IMG/VR virus record: IMGVR_UViG_2713896908_000007
Length of the DNA: 64,000 nt
Reading direction: 5' to 3' (one strand)
From: a virus
Lineage: Duplodnaviria > Heunggongvirae > Uroviricota > Caudoviricetes
Each line of letters opens with the position of its first letter. The first letter of the stretch is position 1. Under the pieces are notes generated by a model. The model saw only the letters and a list, made by a program, of their open reading frames with translations. It made no database searches and was not told where the DNA came from. The position numbers and the translations under genes are program-made. Below, one piece after another: positions 40,817-51,219 of the stretch.

Positions 40817-43800
40817 ATGAATGACGTTACAGTTGTTACATCGGTCACTTACCCATCACCCGAGTCGTTGGCTCTGGTGGCTGATGTGCAATACCACGAA
40901 CCATATCTGTCAGCCGCGCTAAACCGAAAATTCAGGGGAATTGTTGCCCCTGGATTTTATGCCGGTTTCTTGCCTAAGCCTGGTGGTGGGATGAACCTGT
41001 TAATCACCTCAGTGGATGGTGATAAAACTGCTGGCGCTGCGTCAGTGGATATTGGTGAATTCTACCAGGTAACTATTCAGCACCGTAAGGATATTTCTCT
41101 TGCACTTAGTGCAGGTAAGAAATATGCAATTGTGCTGAAGGGAAGATACCTCCTTGGAGAGGATACCTATCAGGTTAATACCGCGTCACATATTCATGCG
41201 GCTGAATTTATTGCCAGAATCTATACCGATTCATATCAGTTGGGAGATGGGGAGCTACTTGTTTGTACGGTAAATATCCCTGCTGGCGTATCTGCCATTA
41301 CCCAGGAGATGATTGATACATCTGAGCGTATCAACCGCACGATCGGCATTGAAATATCAGACTCTGTAACCAGCACCAGAAGTGATGTTGCGGCAAGTTC
41401 GCTGGCAGTTAAAAAAGCCTACGATCTGGCGAAAAGCAAGTATACGGCGCAGGATGCAAGCACAACGCAAAAGGGATTAGTTCAGCTCAGTAGCGAAACT
41501 AACAGCGACAGCGAAACAATGGCGGCTACCCCTAAAGCCGTTAAGTCTGTAAAAGATCTTGCTGATACTAAAGCGCCAATAGAAAGCCCGAATCTGACAG
41601 GGAAACCAGGTGCCCCGACTGCGGCCCCTGGTACAAACAGCAATCAGATCGCAAATACAGCATTTGTTCATGCCGCTATAAACGCGCTTATCAACGGCGC
41701 CCCAGGAACACTGGATACGCTGAAAGAAATTGCGGCCGCTATCAACAACGATCCGAAGTTCGGCACGACTATCAATAATGCGCTGAATCTTAAGGCTCCT
41801 TTAGCAAACCCTGCATTCACCGGAATACCTACCGCGCCTACAGCACCGCAGGGTACAAATAACACACAGATAGCAACGACTGCTTATGTTAGGGCGGCTA
41901 TTTCCGCATTGGTCGGTTCATCTCCTGAAGCTCTGGATACTCTGAATGAGTTAGCTGCGGCGCTTGGCAATGACCCGAACTTTGCGACAACCATGACCAA
42001 TGCACTGGCAGGGAAACAGCCTCTTGATGCAACCTTAACCGCGCTCGCTGCCCTTGCGACTGGTGCAAATAAACTGCCTTATTTCACCGGTAAGGATACG
42101 GTAGCGCAGACTGATTTAACGTCAGTCGGTCGCGATATTCTGGCTAAAACAAGCACACTGGCCGTTATCCAATACCTTGGTTTAAGAGAACTTGGCACAA
42201 GCGGTGAAAAGATTCCCCTGTTGAGCACGGCTAACACATGGAGTGCACGCCAGACTTTCAACGGCGGGATCACCGGGGCGCTGACAGGGAACGCCGACAC
42301 CGCTACAAGATTGCAGACGGCGAGAAAAATTAATGATGTTCTATTTGATGGTTCAAAGGATATCACTTTAACTGCCGAAAACTTAAAGCTTGAGCAAACA
42401 GTAGAATTAGCTGCTGGTGCTTTACAGAAAAAACAGAACGGCGCAGATATTCCAGATAAGGGTGCTTTCCTGAACAATATTAACGCGGTCAGTAAAACAG
42501 ATTTTGCTGCTAAGCGTGGGATGCGTTATGTGCGAGTTAACGCTCCGGCAGGTGTAACGCCCGGAAAATATTACCCTGTTGTTGTAAAACGTAACTCGGG
42601 TTCAACAAGTGAACTTGCATCAAGGGTAGTTATATCCACTAAATCTGTTGGTGGAGCAGATCCTATGAACAACTGCGAGTTCAGCGGATTTGTGATGCCT
42701 GGCGGCTGGACTGACAGAGGGCGTTATGCCTATGGAATGTTCTGGCAATATCACAACAATGAACGAGCAATTCATTCGATAATGATGAGTGCTAAGTCAG
42801 ATGATTTGCACTCTGTATTCTATGTTGATGGTGCTGCTTTCCCTGTCTTTGCATTTATTGAAGATGGCCTGTCAATATCCGCACCGGGTGCTGATCTCGT
42901 TGTTAATGATACGACCTATAAGTTTGGGGCAATAAACCCGGCGACAGAATGTGTCGCGGCTGACGTTATCCTTGATTTTAAAAGTGGGCGTGGTTTTTAT
43001 GAATCTCATTCGTTAATTGTTAACGATAACTTGTCGTGCAAAAAACTTTTCGCAACAGACGAAATTGTAGCGCGTGGTGGTAATCAGATTCGAATGATAG
43101 GCGGGGAATACGGTGCGTTATGGAGAAATGACGGCGCTAAAACTTACCTGCTGCTTACCAACAAAGGTGATGTTTATGGCGAGCATAATGCATTAAGACC
43201 GTTTGCTGTTGATAACGCAACTGGTGAACTGACTGTTGGAACCAAACTATCCGCAAGTCTGAACGGTAACGCATCGACAGCAACCAAGTTACAAAATGCG
43301 ATAAATATTAATGGCGTTAAATTTGATGGTTCCAGTGATATAAATATTAATACGTTAGTATCCCGAAACCGTGTTACAGCATTAAGTGGGAGCGCAAAGG
43401 GTACGCCAGGTATCCAAATGTATGAAGCGTACAACAATGGATATCCTTTTACTTATGGTAACGTTCTTCATCTTACTGGCGCAGCAGCAGTTGGCGAAGG
43501 AGAGTTATTTATTGGGTGGAGTGGGACCAGCGGCGCTCATGCTCCGGCATATATTCGCTCCCGACGAGATACCACAGATGCTAACTGGTCGCCGTGGGCG
43601 CAGCTTTACACGTCAGCTCATCCTCCGGCAGAGTTTTATCCAGTCGGTGCCCCAATTCCGTGGCCTTCTGATGTAGTACCTACAGGTTATGCTATTATGC
43701 AGGGGCAAACTTTTGATAAGTCCGCATACCCAAAACTTGCAGTGGCTTATCCATCTGGTGTTATCCCTGATATGCGTGGATGGACAATCAAGGGTAAACC

Positions 43801-44248
43801 CGCCAGTGGGCGTGCCGTATTGTCTCAGGAACAGGATGGCATCAAGTCGCACACCCACAGTGCCAGCGCATCAAATACTGACCTCGGTACTAAAACGACC
43901 AGCTCATTTGATTACGGGACAAAAACGGTCAGCACGTTTAACCACGGTACAAAAACGACAAACAATACAGGAGCGCATACGCATACTGTCGGTGGTCGTT
44001 ACGGTGGTGACTCCATCGGGGGTAAACAACGCGTACAGGTATCAGGAACCAACCAGGTGTCAAGCTCTGCCGGAGCACATGCCCATACTGTCGATATTGG
44101 TCAGCATAACCACACCGTAGGTATTGGTGCCCATGCGCACACTGTGGCATTGGGTGCGCACGGACATACCATCACGGTTAACGCTACTGGTAATGCGGAA
44201 AACACCGTAAAAAACATTGCATATAACTATATTGTGAGGCTTGCATGA
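40817..44248 (+). CDS. S: tail fibre protein S with C-terminal HxH repeats
   Basis: ATG at 40817 after AAGGA; repeated collar motifs; C-terminal GAHTHT/GAHAHT/GAHGHT repeats of the T4 gp37-type metal-binding tip. Confidence 0.75.
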
Positions 44249-45114
44249 TTAAGTTAATTCTTTCAGCGCCAGTACATGAAATGGCTGAAGCATTTAAGCG
44301 GGTATTCGCAAATGCAGATAATGTGGATGTTGTAGAAAAAACATTTGAAGCAATCCCGGAATTTGACTGCATGGTCAGTGCGGCAAACAGTTTCGGGCTA
44401 ATGGATGGCGGCGTTGACGCTGCCATTACTGCATTCTTTGGTACTCAGTTACAGACACGTGTTCAGAATCATATTCTTCGTGAATATCTTGGTGAGCAGC
44501 CTGTAGGCACTGCATTTGTTATTGAAACGGGGGATAACAACCATCCCTGGCTGGTACATGCGCCAACAATGCGCGTTCCGCTGACCATTGACGGAACAGA
44601 CGCTGTATATAACGCCACGTGGGCTGCTTTACTTGCCATCTTTCAGCACAATAAAAATGCAACGACAGACAGGAAAATAAAGACGGTGGTATTCCCTGCA
44701 ATGGGGGCCGGATGTGGTCAGGTGCCGTTTGAAAGTGTTGCCCGGCAGATGAAGCAGGCATGGGATAACTTTAATAAAAAAACAGAAGCAATTAACTGGG
44801 AATACGCACACTCCCGCCAGTTGGCAGTATTTAATACATGCGCGTACTGCCCGGGTACTCCTGTTTGTCGTTATGCGGATATTAAATATATTGGACTTGG
44901 CGATTACCGGACGTATTGCTTACGGTCGGGGCAGGTATGCATTAATCCTGAACATCAGGTTGATGACGTGCTGACTAATAATCGTTCTCGCCCGGGGGCG
45001 CATATGCATCAGATTAATCCGGTAAAATCCGTAGGTAATATTGCCATTGGCGCACACAGCCACGGAAGGAATATCACCATTGGTGCTCATTCCCATACCC
45101 CACATAAACAATAA
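44245..45114 (+). CDS. macro-domain protein with C-terminal fibre-tip HxH repeats
   Basis: [18 protein letters not shown] and [14 protein letters not shown] match macro-domain signatures; C-terminal [17 protein letters not shown]; ATGA overlap with S. Confidence 0.75.
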
Positions 45115-45138
45115 TTCTTTCTCTGATTAGAGGTGAAA

Positions 45139-45717
45139 ATGACTTTCAGAATGAGTGCTGAAGCACAAACCATTCGCGTATTTAATTATCTCGATGGTAC
45201 AAATGAATTTATTGGAGAAAGTGATGCCTATATTCCACCACATACAGGGCTTCCGGCAAACAGCACAGATATTGCTCCTCCTAAGATTCCAGCTGGTTTT
45301 GCCGCTATATTCGACACAACCCGAAACTTATGGAATTTAATAGAGGACCATAGAGGAAAAACTGTTTATCACACTGAAACAGGTGACGCTAAAACTATAT
45401 TTAAATTAGGCGCTTTGCCTGAGGATGTTACGTGCATTCCTCCTGATGATGAGTATCAGAAGTGGAATGGAAATCAATGGGTTACAGACGATGAGGCGAA
45501 GCATCAAGCTCAGATAACCTATGCAAACTCAAAGAAAAATGAGTTGTTAAAGCACGCAAGCGTAGAGATAGCGATCTTACAAGATGCTGTTGATTTATGT
45601 ATTGCAACAGATGAAGAGAAAGTTTTATTAAATGAATGGAAAAAATACAGAGTGCTTGTAAATAGGTTAAATGAAGATGACATCATTCAAATGAAAGTCC
45701 CTGAAATACCAGTTTGA
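45139..45717 (+). CDS. U: tail fibre assembly chaperone
   Basis: Tfa-like protein (FAAIFDTT...W, DEEKVLLNEWKKYRVLVNRL); immediately follows the fibre locus. Confidence 0.7.
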   Translation: MTFRMSAEAQTIRVFNYLDGTNEFIGESDAYIPPHTGLPANSTDIAPPKIPAGFAAIFDTTRNLWNLIEDHRGKTVYHTETGDAKTIFKLGALPEDVTCIPPDDEYQKWNGNQWVTDDEAKHQAQITYANSKKNELLKHASVEIAILQDAVDLCIATDEEKVLLNEWKKYRVLVNRLNEDDIIQMKVPEIPV

Positions 45718-45771
45718 TTTATATATTAATAAGCCACTGTTGACAGGACTGTTTTACAGTGGTTTGTTTTA

Positions 45772-46920
45772 TTATCCAAACCAATTTTCTAGAACATTTT
45801 CAAATTTATGGGTAACTTGCCACCATAAATAGTTCTCTAATACATATTTCTTTCCGTTATTTGCAATTTGTTCTAATTTTTCGGAGTGTAATGTTTCATA
45901 TATATCACTAGCTAAACTTTCTGGCAACATTGGTTCATTTATATGAAATCCTGTATGGTTATTTTTTACAAATTCAACCATTCCACCTCGAGTGCTAACT
46001 AAAACGGGTTTTCCTGCCCCCATAGCTTCTATAGCAACCATGCAGAACGGTTCTTGAAACTGAGATGGGATTACAACTAGATCGGCTATAGGATAGTAAC
46101 GGTACATATCATCTGGTTTTACCCCGCCAACAAGATGACAACGCGAACCAATAGTTCCAGCAAGTTCCCTTACTTGTTTTTGATATGCAGCTTTTTCTCC
46201 TTTATCTTTATTATTGTAGTCACCAACAACTACAAGTTCTATATTGTCACATGATTTTATCAATTTTTTAAACGCTTGTAATAGTAAAACAGTCCCTTTT
46301 TCAGGGGAGATCCTTCCCGCATAAAAGATAACTTTTTTCTCAGAGGGAATGCCTAAATCTTGTTTTGTTAGCGGGGGTAGCCCTTTATCTAGATTGTGTG
46401 GTTCTGTACCATTAGGAACTATACAAATTTCAGCGTCAGGAAGATGTTTTTCATAAAAATCCTTTAAATACTGACTTGGAACAAGCATTTTCACATTGCT
46501 ATCTAGCCCTTTCGGTGTAAAGGCATTATGCATATGCATTATCATTTTTGCGTCAGGAGCTTTCTCTCTAATTTGACGATAAAGTTTCATGCTGTTATGA
46601 ACAATAATAATGCTATCGTTTGTGATATTGAAATCTTTAGCAATGTTTAACACTCGTTGTGAATATGGAATAGGATCTATTCTGCTCCATTTTTGAAATA
46701 TCCGTTTATAAAGACGGCTAAACCCTATTCTATGGATAGAGCATCGCTCATTAACAATATCTTTTTCTGAGAAACCATCCTCTCGAATGCATGCTATACG
46801 ATTTGGTATTCTTGTTCTCTTTGCGACTTGATATATCCAAGTTTCAACAGCTGCTGCGCCACGAGGTGGTATTGAAAATATTGGTGTAACTGTAAATATT
46901 AATTTGTCAATCATGAGCAA
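45772..46920 (-). CDS. GT-B fold glycosyltransferase (GT4-like)
   Basis: 382 aa; C-terminal EPFCMVAIEAMGAGKPVL fits the GT4 E-x7-E region; AT-rich; overlaps the upstream acetyltransferase gene. Confidence 0.7.
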   Translation of the reverse strand: MLMIDKLIFTVTPIFSIPPRGAAAVETWIYQVAKRTRIPNRIACIREDGFSEKDIVNERCSIHRIGFSRLYKRIFQKWSRIDPIPYSQRVLNIAKDFNITNDSIIIVHNSMKLYRQIREKAPDAKMIMHMHNAFTPKGLDSNVKMLVPSQYLKDFYEKHLPDAEICIVPNGTEPHNLDKGLPPLTKQDLGIPSEKKVIFYAGRISPEKGTVLLLQAFKKLIKSCDNIELVVVGDYNNKDKGEKAAYQKQVRELAGTIGSRCHLVGGVKPDDMYRYYPIADLVVIPSQFQEPFCMVAIEAMGAGKPVLVSTRGGMVEFVKNNHTGFHINEPMLPESLASDIYETLHSEKLEQIANNGKKYVLENYLWWQVTHKFENVLENWFG

Positions 46921-47458
46921 CTATCCTCTTATAATCTTTTTCCTTTAAATGTTTTTTTGGGGTTGCGGGAGAGCCCGCATACATTGTATTAGCAGGAACA
47001 TCAGTATTTACAACGCTATTTGCAGCTATAACACTATTGTCTCCTATTTTTACACCTGGTAGCACAGTTGTATTTGCCCCAATCCAAACATTACGGCCTA
47101 TTTTTATTGGAGCGCAAATTGTTTCTTTGGGACGTTTGCTTGGTGTTAGTGGATGCGTGACAGTTGTTAATACAACGTTGGGGCCAATGGCAGAGTTACA
47201 TCCAATATCTATTGTTTTTGCATCGAGAAAAACACAATTTGCGTTAATGAAGACCTTTTTATCAATAATTATATTGCCATTCTCAAAATAAAATGGAGCT
47301 GTTATTGTTGAGTCTTCACTTACTTTAACTCCTGTTTTTTTTAATGTGATTAATTTTTTTCTTTTTGAGATCAAGGTATAATTAAATATATGTCTTGCTT
47401 TCTTTGCTTTCTTTTTTTGAAAAATTATATAGAAATAATATGTTAGCAAATCAAACAT
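46907..47458 (-). CDS. hexapeptide-repeat acetyltransferase
   Basis: Tandem left-handed beta-helix hexapeptides (IGRNVWIGANTTV, IGDNSVIAANSVV); AT-rich. Confidence 0.7.
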   Translation of the reverse strand: MFDLLTYYFYIIFQKKKAKKARHIFNYTLISKRKKLITLKKTGVKVSEDSTITAPFYFENGNIIIDKKVFINANCVFLDAKTIDIGCNSAIGPNVVLTTVTHPLTPSKRPKETICAPIKIGRNVWIGANTTVLPGVKIGDNSVIAANSVVNTDVPANTMYAGSPATPKKHLKEKDYKRIVAHD

Positions 47459-47482
47459 TGTTGTTTTACTTCCATTTAAAAT

Positions 47483-47812
47483 TTAACTATCAAATGTGGC
47501 TCCTATTTCTCGCATTTTGTTAAGTATGATGTTTATTTCATTGCTACCGAGAGAAGTTTGGGCAGCTATGAAAAAAAGTATGTGCAATGACATAGATCTG
47601 TTATTTTCTTTGTTTATATATTTTCTCCACTGGCTATCGCTGCTGACCCCGGCTAGTTCTGCCATTTGATTCCCTGTATACCCAAGCGTTTCTTTGAATT
47701 GACGCAAATCTTGTGATTTGGGGGGGGTGTAGTTGTTTATTAACCTCATATTAAACCCATTATTGGTAAGCTTTCGTTGGTGTAATGGTAGCACCAATGG
47801 GGCTGCTGTCAA
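47483..47812 (-). CDS. small HTH-like protein at the head of the GT/acetyltransferase cassette
   Basis: ORF with a probable HTH (LGYTGNQMAELAGVSSDSQW); start uncertain (track TTG, or internal ATG at 47749). Confidence 0.35.
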   Translation of the reverse strand: MTAAPLVLPLHQRKLTNNGFNMRLINNYTPPKSQDLRQFKETLGYTGNQMAELAGVSSDSQWRKYINKENNRSMSLHILFFIAAQTSLGSNEINIILNKMREIGATFDS

Positions 47813-47889
47813 GCGTCTTTTCTTTATAAATATAGGGAGCCATCAAAATCTGACATTAATTATCTATCGAAATATTTTGAATGACTGGT

Positions 47890-47910
47890 GAGAAGTTACT
47901 TTGCATACCA
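47890..47910 (+). promoter_or_regulatory. candidate late promoter upstream of lydA
   Basis: GAGAAGTTACTTTGCATACCA; the AGTTACTTTGCATA core recurs upstream of other late genes. Confidence 0.35.
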
Positions 47911-47939
47911 TTACCTCCTGACAACGTAGGAGGGAACTT

Positions 47940-48269
47940 GTGCTTGACACACAGGAATTAGCTCCAGTTGCTATTGCGCTCCTGCTTTCAGTAATTGGTG
48001 GGATAGGCACGTTCCTGATGGATGTCCGAGACGGTCGCCAGTCTGGCAATTTGTTGGGATTGGTTACGGAGATCTTTGTTGCAGTGACAGCTGGCGCGGT
48101 GGCGTACCTATTGGGGCAACACGAGGGCTGGGAGTTATCAATTACGTACTTAATGGTAACGATAGCCAGCAATAACGGTCATGAGGTGATTTCAGGGATG
48201 AAACGAGTGAATATCGATAGCATTCTGAATGTTCTTACAAGTTTGGTGAAAAAGGGAGGCGGGAAATGA
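47940..48269 (+). CDS. lydA: holin
   Basis: 109 aa with hydrophobic helices and basic C-terminus; GTG start after AGGAGG; coupled to the next gene. Confidence 0.65.
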   Translation: MLDTQELAPVAIALLLSVIGGIGTFLMDVRDGRQSGNLLGLVTEIFVAVTAGAVAYLLGQHEGWELSITYLMVTIASNNGHEVISGMKRVNIDSILNVLTSLVKKGGGK

Positions 48270-48709
48270 TTGGCTGGGGTGTATGCGCTCTTGCGGCAGC
48301 CTTAGCTGATCGCTATTTGCTAAAACGCAAGGACATCACGAATTTAGAGCTTGGTGATGTGGAAATTAAACCGGGATTTATCCGGGTGCCGTTCAAATAT
48401 CGGTCTAAATTCCCGTTTTTGCGCGGTGCAACGGTCAGATATTGGCTCCGTGATGTTCAGAAGCCGACGACAGTGATTGAAGGCGAACAACGTTGCCTGA
48501 CGTCGGCTGAACAGGGCGAAAACAGTGAATGGTTGTACATACCCACTGAATATATGGGTAAAGGAGAACGACTGTGGCATTTCAACGTCATGGTTACGCA
48601 CGGCGACTCGTTCATTAACCCGTTGTATCGGATTTTCCCTGTTACTCAGCAAATCCGCAGAAGTTACGTAATAAATCTCGCACAGGATGTGTCAGATGAC
48701 GAAAAATAA
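48266..48709 (+). CDS. lydB: lysis regulator (antiholin-like) LydB
   Basis: 147-aa ORF coupled to the holin, as in the P1 lydA-lydB pair. Confidence 0.55.
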   Translation: MIGWGVCALAAALADRYLLKRKDITNLELGDVEIKPGFIRVPFKYRSKFPFLRGATVRYWLRDVQKPTTVIEGEQRCLTSAEQGENSEWLYIPTEYMGKGERLWHFNVMVTHGDSFINPLYRIFPVTQQIRRSYVINLAQDVSDDEK

Positions 48710-49298
48710 GTATGCAACGGTCGATTTTGACCAGGTTAATGAAAAGGGGCTTAAATCCCTTATCACGGCGATCAATAAAACCGGTGTTACGGTAATTGAG
48801 GTTGACTCCAGCAACCGCGCAACTACGAAAGATGGCGTTAAAGTTAAAACCGCAAAGTTGGTTCTTAACGACGGACAAATTCTTGCTATACAGGTAAATG
48901 ATACTGGCGATATATCGTCTGTGAAACTGAATGGAAAAGCTATTCCTAATGCTCAATCGCCAGATATCAAGACGCTTGGTACCGTCATGGGGCAAGCGGC
49001 CCACAAAAACGCTGCAAAATTCCAGAAATCACTGATCGCCAAAGCTAAACGTGTTGCCAATCCGGTAGACAAGAAACCGGCAGTTAAATCCAACTTTCAG
49101 CGCCTGCAAGAGGCAAAACAGCGGAATGCTCAGGTGGTTGCCGCTTATAAATCCGCGCAGAACTCGGTGTCTTTCAATCAACAGCAGATCACTGATTTGC
49201 GGGCGAAGCTGGATAAGGAGACAGGTCGACTCAATAACGAAAAGGCCAGGAATGGCGAACTCAAACGCCGTCTTAAGCAACTGAAAGCAGGAAATTAA
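48696..49298 (+). CDS. Dar-operon protein (hdf-like)
   Basis: About 200-aa ORF immediately upstream of and coupled to darA; basic coiled-coil C-terminus. Confidence 0.45.
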   Translation: MTKNKYATVDFDQVNEKGLKSLITAINKTGVTVIEVDSSNRATTKDGVKVKTAKLVLNDGQILAIQVNDTGDISSVKLNGKAIPNAQSPDIKTLGTVMGQAAHKNAAKFQKSLIAKAKRVANPVDKKPAVKSNFQRLQEAKQRNAQVVAAYKSAQNSVSFNQQQITDLRAKLDKETGRLNNEKARNGELKRRLKQLKAGN

Positions 49299-49299
49299 C

Positions 49300-51219
49300 A
49301 TGGAACAGTTCAATATCAATAAAGGGGTGACGATCAAACCTGGGCTTGACGTGCTTCCCCCGCCAGTGACTGATGATGAATATCGCGCATTAATGGCCGG
49401 TGAGGACCGCTATCTGATGACGGAATCCAACACCCTGGAGGAAATCGAGGCTACGTTCTTCTATGACAAGCCGATCCACTGGTGTGCTACGGATTTACTG
49501 GAGGCGATTAGTTCTACTCGTTTGCAGTTACACCGGACCATGCAGGCATTTGTCCGGGCATTGAACCAGAAGCTGAATGGTACCGGAATCTCTGCGGGGA
49601 GTGATAAAACGGGGGATGTGGCCCAGAGCGGCGCGCGCGCGATCGGCGGCGCTGAAATTGGTCGGGCACGTAACGTTAACGGGCTGCCGGTCCTGCCAGC
49701 CATTATTCCGCTCAGTGATGGTCAGACTATCAGCATTTTGTTTCATAGCCCGACAGCGGAAAACCGGATCACCAATAGCGATACGCTGGTTGCTTTCCAG
49801 TTCTTACTGAATAAAAAAGACGTTACTCACACCGTTGCTCCGATGAGTGGACGTGATATGACGCTGGCGCAGGTCACCATGAAACTTGCCAACCTTGCAG
49901 AGAAAAACTCGGCAAAATTCCAGCGTGCGCAGAAGAAGAAAAAAGCCCTGGTTGATGAAATAACCCAACTACAGGCTGACAGTGACCAGAAAGAGGATGC
50001 CATGAGCGACCTCGCGGATCAGGTGGCAGCGGTAGAAGGCCAGAAGGCAGATCTGGAGCAGAAAATTAACGCGGTTGCTTCGGAAGCGGATTCTCTTTAT
50101 CAAGAAAATGAGCGTTTGCAGGCGGAGATTGAGCAGCTCAATCGCACTGGTGGGCGCGATACCATTGCTCCAACGGGGATGACTGGTGGGCACTCTCGCG
50201 CGCTGACGGATCGCCTTGCCAGTATCAAAAATCGTATGCATATGGACGGGGAAGCGACGCTCAGTAATGGTGCATCAATGAAGCAATTCATTGGGGACGG
50301 CAAAGGGTATGTCCAGTTAACCGATCCGGATGGCAGCGTGTACATGATCAAGGCTAAATCCATACAGGGTGTGGACATGGCAGATGCGATCGGCAAGCTG
50401 TTTAAAGCCTATAAAGCGGGTAACGTATCGGAATATCTGGTCCAACCAGAAGAGCCTAAACCGGAAAACGTCGAACCTGAACCAGCGGAAGATACCGGTA
50501 GCTCTTCGCCTGAACCAGAAGTCTCTGTAGGTGCATATCGATATGCCCTGCAAATGCGTCCGGCGGCCCCAGGCGCGATACCTGAAGGTAACAAAGCAAT
50601 TCTGCCGTGCCCTGATGAAGGTGACCCGTATTATGAATATGCGCGCTACGGCATTGTTACTTACGATACCCCGCTTTCTGATCAGCAAATGAGTGAGTAC
50701 GACCTGAAGTTATTGCCTCGCGAGGATTCTTTCGACTTCCTGGCGAAGACACTTACTAATGGTCCGTTTGGCAAATATGCACAAAAAGCTCTGGAGCTGG
50801 CCACCAGCTCACCAGACGAGTTCCGCGTAATGCTGAAAACTCAGTTTCAAAAAACTTTCCCCAATATTGCGTTTCCGGGGGGCGCAGGCACCGAGAAAAT
50901 GGTGCAGAGCATGATCAATGCATTGCAGGCCGAAGTCGGTGAGATTACTCAACCAGAATCGGCCCCGGAACAGCATGATGAAAAGGTTAGCGAAGCAGAT
51001 GCAGAGGCTAATAAAGCCATTGAATATCTCAATAACGTGATGGATATGCAAAGCACTGACATGGCGGAGATCCGCAACGCCAGGGGCAATGTCAGGGAAG
51101 CGATTGCTGCCCTTCAGGCTGCCGGACGTTTTGATGAAAACGAAGAGCTGGTTAACGGCGCAGCTCGCCACCTGGCTGATCTGCTGGTAGCAATCCAGAA
51201 AGCGGGAGGAGCGGCATGA
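49300..51219 (+). CDS. darA: antirestriction capsid protein DarA
   Basis: 639 aa, same length and operon position as remembered P1 DarA. Confidence 0.65.
   Translation: MEQFNINKGVTIKPGLDVLPPPVTDDEYRALMAGEDRYLMTESNTLEEIEATFFYDKPIHWCATDLLEAISSTRLQLHRTMQAFVRALNQKLNGTGISAGSDKTGDVAQSGARAIGGAEIGRARNVNGLPVLPAIIPLSDGQTISILFHSPTAENRITNSDTLVAFQFLLNKKDVTHTVAPMSGRDMTLAQVTMKLANLAEKNSAKFQRAQKKKKALVDEITQLQADSDQKEDAMSDLADQVAAVEGQKADLEQKINAVASEADSLYQENERLQAEIEQLNRTGGRDTIAPTGMTGGHSRALTDRLASIKNRMHMDGEATLSNGASMKQFIGDGKGYVQLTDPDGSVYMIKAKSIQGVDMADAIGKLFKAYKAGNVSEYLVQPEEPKPENVEPEPAEDTGSSSPEPEVSVGAYRYALQMRPAAPGAIPEGNKAILPCPDEGDPYYEYARYGIVTYDTPLSDQQMSEYDLKLLPREDSFDFLAKTLTNGPFGKYAQKALELATSSPDEFRVMLKTQFQKTFPNIAFPGGAGTEKMVQSMINALQAEVGEITQPESAPEQHDEKVSEADAEANKAIEYLNNVMDMQSTDMAEIRNARGNVREAIAALQAAGRFDENEELVNGAARHLADLLVAIQKAGGAA

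Follow-up and report, generated by a model that had tools for sequence, protein, structure and literature searches.

In the crystal structure of the T4 gp37 needle, as cited in PMC11705849, each trimer holds seven iron ions, coordinated by HxH motifs from its three chains. The yeast protein YMR087W, the sole studied member of the Macro2 type, converts Appr-1''-p (the 1''-phosphate of ADP-ribose) to ADP-ribose and lacks de-MARylating (mono-ADP-ribose-removing) activity (PMC6397177). A phage macro enzyme that removes ADP-ribose, AdfM (PhiKZ gp104 and PhiPA3 gp108), is proven anti-defence (PMC13309987), and sensitivity to type II Thoeris, which signals through histidine-ADP-ribose (His-ADPR), is set by the phage fibre and its chaperone (bioRxiv 10.64898/2026.06.04.730250). 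Here we describe a gene in which a macro domain is joined to HxH repeats of the fibre kind, and which lies between the tail fibre gene S and the fibre-assembly gene U (Tfa). It was found in a 64,000-nucleotide (nt) stretch of viral DNA (IMG/VR record IMGVR_UViG_2713896908_000007; hereafter the window), which represents a P1-like phage-plasmid. The region is 100% identical to Escherichia albertii plasmids, and P1 itself matches window positions 30000-50000 at about 96.6% identity across 72%. RefSeq names the product of 44245-45114 'macro domain-containing protein'; its match to PHROG 2613 (1e-136) leads to a family listed as function unknown.

The gene between S and U encodes a Macro2-like protein

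A first-pass annotation, made by reading the DNA sequence alone, had pointed to macro-domain signatures in this protein and had proposed structure prediction and a macro profile search as checks. The signatures that it quoted were found at residues 44-61 and 148-162. The Pfam profile Macro (PF01661) matched with 70 bits, the cutoff being 22 (E=2.2e-19), over profile positions 1-118 of 118. The AlphaFold model, computed from an alignment of 106 sequences that included distant standalone relatives, had a predicted local distance difference test (pLDDT) score above 90 over most of residues 1-190; 30 close homologues alone gave a pLDDT of 55. Foldseek returned 181 PDB matches at E<=0.001, and the 50 listed were all macro domains or macro-derived designs, the predicted model and these matches having the three-layer alpha/beta/alpha macro fold in common. 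The ADP-ribose-binding loops are kept, N48-x6-G55-G56-V57-D58 and G154-A-G156-C-G158 being invariant or nearly so in the 106 sequences. The domain has another conserved motif, H105-x-P-T-M-R110, and 36 columns are invariant across the phage-type and standalone sequences of the alignment. The invariance of the loops and of these columns suggests that the ligand site is under the same constraint as in cellular enzymes. Profile, predicted fold and ligand-binding motifs thus bear out the signatures first noticed, and indicate that the open reading frame (ORF) encodes a genuine macro-domain protein with a predicted ADP-ribose-binding domain. We are highly confident of its identity and architecture, namely a macro domain followed by a Cys/His module and HxH units.

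The closest solved relative, by both fold and profile, was YMR087W (1njr), which headed the Foldseek matches (E=1.2e-10, 198 columns, root-mean-square deviation 3.1) and came first again in a profile search of PDB sequences (1.4e-7). In pairwise comparison the two proteins have a loop motif in common, which reads SPGNSYGYLGGGFD in one of the two. They differ in that identity is only about 20% and that YMR087W stands alone as an enzyme of the cell, lacking both a Cys/His tail and any viral context. The Pfam family Macro_2 (PF14519) has a precomputed match in many close relatives of the window protein; the window protein itself scored 22.5 bits, under the gathering cutoff of 27, and is therefore labelled 'Macro2-like' here and not a certified Macro_2 member. 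NCBIfam and PADLOC gave only generic or marginal macro matches, and DarG structures were among the Foldseek macro matches, ranked far below 1njr. Because its clade is Macro2/YMR087W-like, and the sole studied member is an Appr-1''-p phosphatase without de-MARylation (PMC6397177), the window protein appears to fall outside the known counter-defence macro clades. AdfM resembles it in being a phage-encoded macro enzyme; however, AdfM and bacterial DarG2 belong to what appears to be another clade, DarG/TARG1-like with an Asn/Lys site, and AdfM is expressed to protect replicating DNA, is encoded outside a tail operon and has no HxH tail.

A Cys/His module and an HxH tail follow the macro domain

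In 30 phage-type sequences, C202, C225 and C232 of the module were invariant and C208 and H237 nearly so; in the tail, G251 was invariant and H253 and H255 were nearly invariant (90% or more). Past the first GAHxH, tail length varied in the same sequences, with zero to three further HxH units and hence one to four in total. In the AlphaFold monomer, residues 211-225 of the Cys segment were modelled as a beta-hairpin with a pLDDT of 62-72. The units of the window protein are GAHMH (44995), GAHSH (45049) and GAHSH (45082), and those of the S tip are GAHTH, GAHAH, GAHAH and GAHGH. The pattern G[AS]HxH occurred only eight times in the window's 127,996 six-frame residues, with four occurrences in the S tip and three in the macro tail, and 36 of 100,000 shuffles of the protein reached three HxH in the last 44 residues.

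The BLASTP match between the macro tail and the end of S was motif-driven. An origin of the tail as a DNA duplicate of the S end was rejected, the shared DNA being motif matches of 13-17 nt only, and the resemblance of the macro tail to the S tip lies at the protein level alone. A homologue search with the C-terminal 94 residues by themselves retrieved one truncated gene fragment and nothing else, suggesting that the Cys/HxH module has no independent existence as a protein. Compared with the T4 gp37 tip (2XGF) and its gp38/Tfa partner, the locus is alike in the order from fibre tip to chaperone and in its S tip, a close homologue, and the macro tail reuses the I-G-A-H-x-H unit of the needle, with three units in 44 residues. 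It differs in that the macro tail has only one to four units, no collar or head domain and no detectable homology to the tip, and in that T4-like phages with such a tip lack the macro gene. The earlier statement that the C-terminus repeats the S-tip motif therefore held, with three GAHxH units, whereas the term 'fibre tip module' has to be narrowed to a family-specific Cys4/His segment plus one to four short HxH units, which show no detectable homology to solved fibre domains and are unstructured in the monomer model.

The fibre/macro/Tfa arrangement is an optional cassette of temperate phages

The first-pass annotation had noted that the ORF overlaps the S stop codon as ATGA and precedes U. 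This was confirmed: the macro ATG (44245-44247) overlaps the S stop TGA (44246-44248), a GAGG Shine-Dalgarno sequence lies 5 nt upstream at 44236-44239 within the last codons of S, and 24 nt separate the end of the macro gene from the U start codon (45139). No terminator-like site was found on the + strand of the S-to-U interval. A comparison of this interval across P1-like genomes, also proposed at the first pass, showed that the order is kept on other P1-like plasmids and extends to lambdoid and P2-like phages. The same order, with genes overlapping or nearly so, was found in the lambdoid phage Gifsy-1 of Salmonella LT2, in the P2-like phages SEN4/SEN5 and Chuche, and in lambdoid and P2-like prophages of E. 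coli, including those of ST131 and O157:H7. The macro gene was annotated, with a nucleotide identity of at least 85%, in 128 of the 5,426 complete E. coli genomes; 108 of its places were on chromosomes and 22 on plasmids. It was also present on 38 plasmids. It overlapped a fibre gene in all 30 E. coli matches listed. A protein search retrieved 2,258 relatives, the top 120 of which were from Enterobacterales and labelled only 'macro domain-containing protein' or 'phage tail protein', and the full-length copies in the phage collection were all in temperate-type phages. The arrangement is thus a mobile, optional cassette of lambdoid, P2-like and P1-like temperate phages and not a peculiarity of P1.

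Junction alignments showed that the cassette is precise. The fibre end ...GTGAGGCTTGCA runs either into ATGA, which opens the macro gene, or into TAATG, which opens Tfa (locus L098, for example), and the cassette of about 0.9 kb supplies its own GAGGTG Shine-Dalgarno sequence for Tfa. An S-type tip (85-93% nucleotide identity) followed directly by Tfa, with no macro gene, was found in the P2-like phage STYP1, the T4-like phage Lv5cm and the E. coli EC2 and UMNF18 prophages, and the window's exact tip in complete E. coli genomes was accompanied by the macro gene at 9 of 18 places. Since this tip is also found with Tfa as its immediate neighbour, the macro gene is dispensable for fibre assembly, and an essential chaperone role was rejected on the strength of these macro-less cassettes.

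The same evidence bears on a weaker form of that idea, in which the protein would be an accessory assembly factor or metallochaperone: the tail would hold Fe or Zn for the nascent needle or template HxH strand pairing, and the macro domain would be regulatory or a scaffold. The disordered, Cys/His-rich tail, the position of the gene between fibre and chaperone, and the seven iron ions per trimer that the gp37 needle needs (PMC11705849) are in keeping with it. However, STYP1, Lv5cm, EC2 and UMNF18 assemble the same tip without the macro gene, the macro protein gave no match to the Caudo_TAP/Tfa profile, which matches the neighbouring U, and a scaffold role leaves the strong conservation of the ADP-ribose site unexplained. 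We regard this explanation as very improbable.

The slot after Tfa is a cargo hotspot. Serine or O-acetyltransferases were found there (loci L007 and L095-L097, and SEN34), as were an S-adenosylmethionine (SAM) methyltransferase (L092, L093, L098), a reverse transcriptase and SLATT pair in ST131 (L094), and cdtA/cdtB (L092). SEN34 carries beside its O-acetyltransferase a decayed fragment of the Cys module (L008, 4001-4198), 56% identical to residues 184-255, with no macro domain; this relic, left by a cassette since lost, lies apart from the genes for the fibre and Tfa. One cassette of fibre end, macro gene and Tfa, 84% identical to that of the window, was found in a metagenome-assembled genome (MAG) labelled 'Bacillota bacterium' (L010; JAEWTL010000041.1), most likely a mis-binned enterobacterial prophage contig.

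The macro gene is under purifying selection and follows one type of fibre tip

Among close relatives, the macro domain had a pairwise ratio of nonsynonymous to synonymous substitution rates (dN/dS) of 0.10-0.31, the Cys module one of 0.12-0.20 and the tail one of 0.23-0.32; between distant relatives the tail diverges fast. These ratios bear on the possibility, raised at the first pass as one that would undo the reading of the gene, that the ORF is a non-expressed recombination scar or otherwise spurious. The position at a mosaic junction, the decayed Cys-module fragment in SEN34 and the existence of truncated and chimeric macro copies (P0019, P0024 and P0270) speak for a scar. However, purifying selection was seen in all parts (0.10-0.32), the ORF was intact in 127 of the 128 E. 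coli genome matches (80% coverage or more), and the gene has thousands of homologues, a Shine-Dalgarno sequence and the features of translational coupling. The scar explanation is effectively refuted, and these sequence data indicate that the macro ORF is a real, selectively maintained gene.

In all 16 loci examined, the upstream fibre ended in HxH repeats and the conserved end (Y/F)NY(I/L)VRLA, that is, in a gp37-type needle. All parts of the macro protein co-varied with the fibre tip (Spearman about 0.7, Mantel p=0.0005) and less so with Tfa (0.33-0.47). Recombination breakpoints were also observed within the macro gene: between Chuche and the E. fergusonii locus L005, the synonymous rate (dS) was 0.27 over residues 1-195 and 0.03 over residues 196-289. 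The macro-coding DNA may itself be a crossover site for swapping module halves.

The macro domain has standalone relatives, the fusion is enterobacterial

A search of 1.8 billion representatives gave 2,386 relatives, nearly all of them standalone proteins of about 200 residues or eukaryotic-looking fusions that match residues 1-195 only. The neighbourhoods of 80 loci from species-representative genomes were surveyed. All seven enterobacterial-type loci (from E. coli, Erwinia and Izhakiella, plus a MAG that is probably mis-binned) had the Cys/His-rich tail and a U-like Tfa immediately downstream, with an S-like fibre end upstream wherever the contig allowed. Neither the Cys/His tail nor a Tfa neighbour was found in any of the other 73 (Chloroflexota, Cyanobacteria, Bacteroidota, Acidobacteriota, Planctomycetota and more; Fisher p=3e-10), and no neighbour is conserved among these standalone homologues, at most five of the 73 loci having one in common. 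The bacterial standalone macro proteins (about 200 residues; Chloroflexota, Cyanobacteria, Bacteroidota and others) are 45-55% identical to the window protein over residues 1-195 and have the 36 invariant residues, whereas relatives from jumbo phages and giant viruses, PhiPA3 gp271 and the Noxifer 'tail protein' among them, are more distant, at about 23-37% identity. The standalone relatives differ from the window protein in having no C-terminal Cys/HxH extension and no fibre or Tfa neighbours. The phage macro domain probably derives from this group of bacterial, jumbo-phage and giant-virus proteins.

The name 'phage tail protein' is also carried by chromosomal standalone macro proteins (P0285, P0314, P0331, P0364 and P0375, from Chloroflexota, Parabeggiatoa and Deltaproteobacteria) and by jumbo-phage ones; it was apparently transferred from the enterobacterial prophage copies and is without evidential support. 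PhiPA3 encodes two macro proteins, gp108, which is the anti-DarT2 protein AdfM, and gp271, which belongs to the clade of the window protein. AdfM was rejected as a functional anchor for the clade, because it is gp108 and not gp271.

A variant of the fusion was found in Izhakiella australiensis, where three copies in one genome (L013-L015) encode a 300-residue protein with a Cys-dense linker (CGC...CDCGCG...CRCG) that still ends in HxH units, the gene following a very short fibre (291 residues) with a gp37-type needle end. The possibility that this tail is a frameshifted standard tail was rejected, since the motif occurs in no other frame and DNA homology is confined to the last 59 nt.

These comparisons weigh on an explanation in which the protein works free in the cytoplasm as an accessory ('moron') enzyme. 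It would be an ordinary enzyme of counter-defence or of ADP-ribose hydrolysis, hitch-hiking in the most exchanged phage module, with a tail for self-oligomerization or stability only. In favour of this, the cassette is optional and shows clean presence or absence; the fibre/Tfa region is a hotspot of recombination and cargo, breakpoints fall within the macro gene, and the standalone clade members of jumbo phages and giant viruses lie away from fibres. However, a hitch-hiker is not expected in a single slot, after a gp37-type tip in 16 of 16 loci and with an HxH tail only there, and two unrelated Cys/His linkers, the standard one and that of Izhakiella, occupy the same position. We consider this explanation unlikely.

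The first-pass annotation had raised a virion-associated role as a possibility, and the corresponding explanation is an enzyme borne on the fibre: the tail would join the needle or Tfa at the tip, and the macro domain would act on a surface substrate, for instance as an esterase on an O-acetylated lipopolysaccharide (LPS) sugar. The HxH mimicry and the strict fibre context agree with this, macro enzymes include O-acetyl-ADP-ribose deacetylases, and acetyltransferase cargo genes adjoin the cassette in the window, L007, L095-L097 and SEN34. On the other hand, the ligand site is conserved with that of cytoplasmic standalone enzymes, which argues for the same intracellular substrate; the enterobacterial surface is not known to carry an ADP-ribose-like substrate; the acetyltransferases are variable and occupy a site known for cargo; and the literature searches turned up no virion proteomics on Gifsy-1, SEN4/5 or Chuche. 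A virion-borne enzyme is, in our judgement, a very unlikely explanation.

A fibre-coupled ADP-ribose hydrolase is proposed

As the overall best explanation, we propose that temperate enterobacterial phages took a cellular Macro2-like ADP-ribose hydrolase into their gp37-type tip/Tfa module, where it gained a fibre-like, metal-binding tail; we hold this tentatively, with doubt slightly outweighing belief. The protein would be made late and together with the fibre, the overlapping stop and start codons placing its translation start in the ribosome-binding context of the fibre gene. Together with metal, the tail, disordered alone, would fold to form a small trimeric stalk resembling the needle or to dock on fibre/Tfa complexes. 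It would thus be a metal-dependent oligomerization or docking element modelled on the fibre needle, which couples the enzyme to the fibre or Tfa or at least trimerizes it. We put the odds that the tail is functionally coupled to the fibre or to Tfa at about even. ADP-ribose processing, by hydrolysis at the ribose 1'' position, would in this way be placed where and when fibres assemble.

The most likely purpose would be to neutralize an ADP-ribose-based host response, be it a signal or a modification, linked to fibre-chaperone complexes. Counter-defence is favoured because macro enzymes cleave at ribose 1'', because AdfM, although from another clade, is a proven case of counter-defence, and because fibre and chaperone set sensitivity to type II Thoeris; it remains a doubtful purpose. 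A more specific version, which we consider quite improbable, is a fibre-tethered anti-signalling enzyme: the HxH/Cys tail with metal would dock on the nascent gp37-type fibre/Tfa, structures that TIR-type sensors can recognize, and the Macro2-like site would cleave or sequester ADP-ribose (ADPR)-1''-linked immune molecules (for example His-ADPR) or ADP-ribosyl marks at their source. The macro-domain ThsA of type II Thoeris offers a likeness in that its macro domain reads an ADPR-1''-linked molecule, His-ADPR. It differs in being an effector of the host instead of a protein of the phage; sequence comparison detected no relationship, and its link to the window gene is hypothetical only.

Several observations weigh against the proposed mechanism. 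Residues 240-289 were unstructured in the AlphaFold monomer (pLDDT about 30), the Cys/HxH part matched no Pfam family and nothing in PDB save a chance match to HypE at E=0.5, and comparison of the macro tail with solved fibre domains detected no homology beyond the five-residue motif. Since the macro gene and the tip-coding DNA adjoin, physical linkage could account for their co-variation. YMR087W, alone among Macro2-type enzymes in having been studied, has a housekeeping role as an Appr-1''-p phosphatase and does not de-MARylate (PMC6397177), and the match to DarG in PADLOC was marginal (E=0.0035, 14.9 bits, 39 residues). The demonstration of fibre sensing by type II Thoeris concerned Pseudomonas N4-like phages, whose fibres are unrelated (bioRxiv 10.64898/2026.06.04.730250), and a late gene has no way to act early on, whereas most known anti-signalling genes do so.

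Features of the locus and neighbouring genes

The coordinates of the S-macro-U interval are collected in Table 1.

Table 1. Features of the fibre/macro/Tfa cassette, in window coordinates
Feature	Position	Strand	Basis
Tail fibre gene S (mosaic)	40817..44248	+	Pfam Phage_fiber_2, Gp34_trimer, Collar
T4 gp37-type receptor-binding tip of S (collar, HxH needle, C-terminal end)	43634..44245	+	phmmer vs PDB
S/macro coupling junction (GAGG Shine-Dalgarno and ATGA)	44236..44248	+	Sequence
Macro-domain protein gene, 289 residues plus stop	44245..45114	+	ORF, Pfam, PHROG 2613
Macro domain (predicted), residues 1-195	44245..44829	+	Pfam, AlphaFold, Foldseek, invariant columns
Cys-rich module, residues 196-245, putative metal site	44830..44979	+	Alignment, pLDDT, dN/dS
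HxH tail, residues 246-289 (GAHMH, IGAHSH, IGAHSH)	44980..45111	+	Alignment, motif count, dN/dS
U/Tfa tail-fibre assembly gene with GAGGTG Shine-Dalgarno	45130..45717 (ATG 45139)	+	Pfam Caudo_TAP 4.9e-32; PHROG 105; RefSeq coordinates

The S tip, its last 204 residues, was identified as a homologue of the T4 gp37 tip (2XGF chain A, E=4.3e-78; phmmer with residues 57-260 of the translation of window 43466-44245 as query). Because the S tip is homologous to gp37 and U is a Caudo_TAP/Tfa protein, S and U form a classical gp37/gp38 (Stf/Tfa) exchangeable module. Residues 1-517 of S are 93% identical to P1 S, and beyond residue 517 collinearity is lost. There follow about 290 residues non-collinear with P1, which carry a Gp34_trimer domain and a repeated GNA-TATKL...NINGV-FDGS segment, and then the gp37-type tip.

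The exact P1 cix crossover sequence is present within S at 42167-42190 (+), and a second cix is absent from the window. A blastn search of the window gave no homology to P1 cin, U' or U. With a single cix and no homology to these genes, an invertible C-segment was ruled out, and the cix at 42167-42190 is a frozen, non-invertible remnant of the C-segment. Where P1 has U', Sv' and cin, the window carries at 45772-47458 (-) a gene for a WaaK-like LPS N-acetylglucosaminyltransferase (NF012028, scoring 658 bits with the cutoff at 618) and one for a hexapeptide-repeat acetyltransferase. The LPS core is the receptor class of P1. The two genes are candidate lysogenic-conversion genes and could alter the LPS core.

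Implications for fibre modules and ADP-ribose biology

No publication on a macro gene in a fibre locus, on its tail or on its function was found in full-text searches of the literature; what was already known consists of generic database names and of a macro domain noted in the Gifsy-1 annotation. What is new is that a macro enzyme has a fusion partner not seen before and a fixed place in a structural operon. Macro domains have a central part in ADP-ribose signalling and in virus-host conflict, and no parts of phages are exchanged or engineered more often than tail-fibre/chaperone modules. In the cassette described here, a macro enzyme maintained by selection appears with a copy of the fibre's iron-binding repeat, confined to one type of fibre module, in Gifsy-1, in ST131 and O157:H7 E. 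coli and in P1-like phage-plasmids. The strict association and the needle mimicry will be surprising to specialists; the mechanism remains a proposal. Because the 'tip plus chaperone' unit sometimes holds a third gene, fibre-swapping work calls for caution. If the fibre-tethered version of the proposal were true, the countermeasure would be encoded with, co-translated with and physically attached to its own immune trigger. If the tail couples the enzyme to fibres or Tfa, this would be the first link of ADP-ribose chemistry to tail-fibre biogenesis or sensing.

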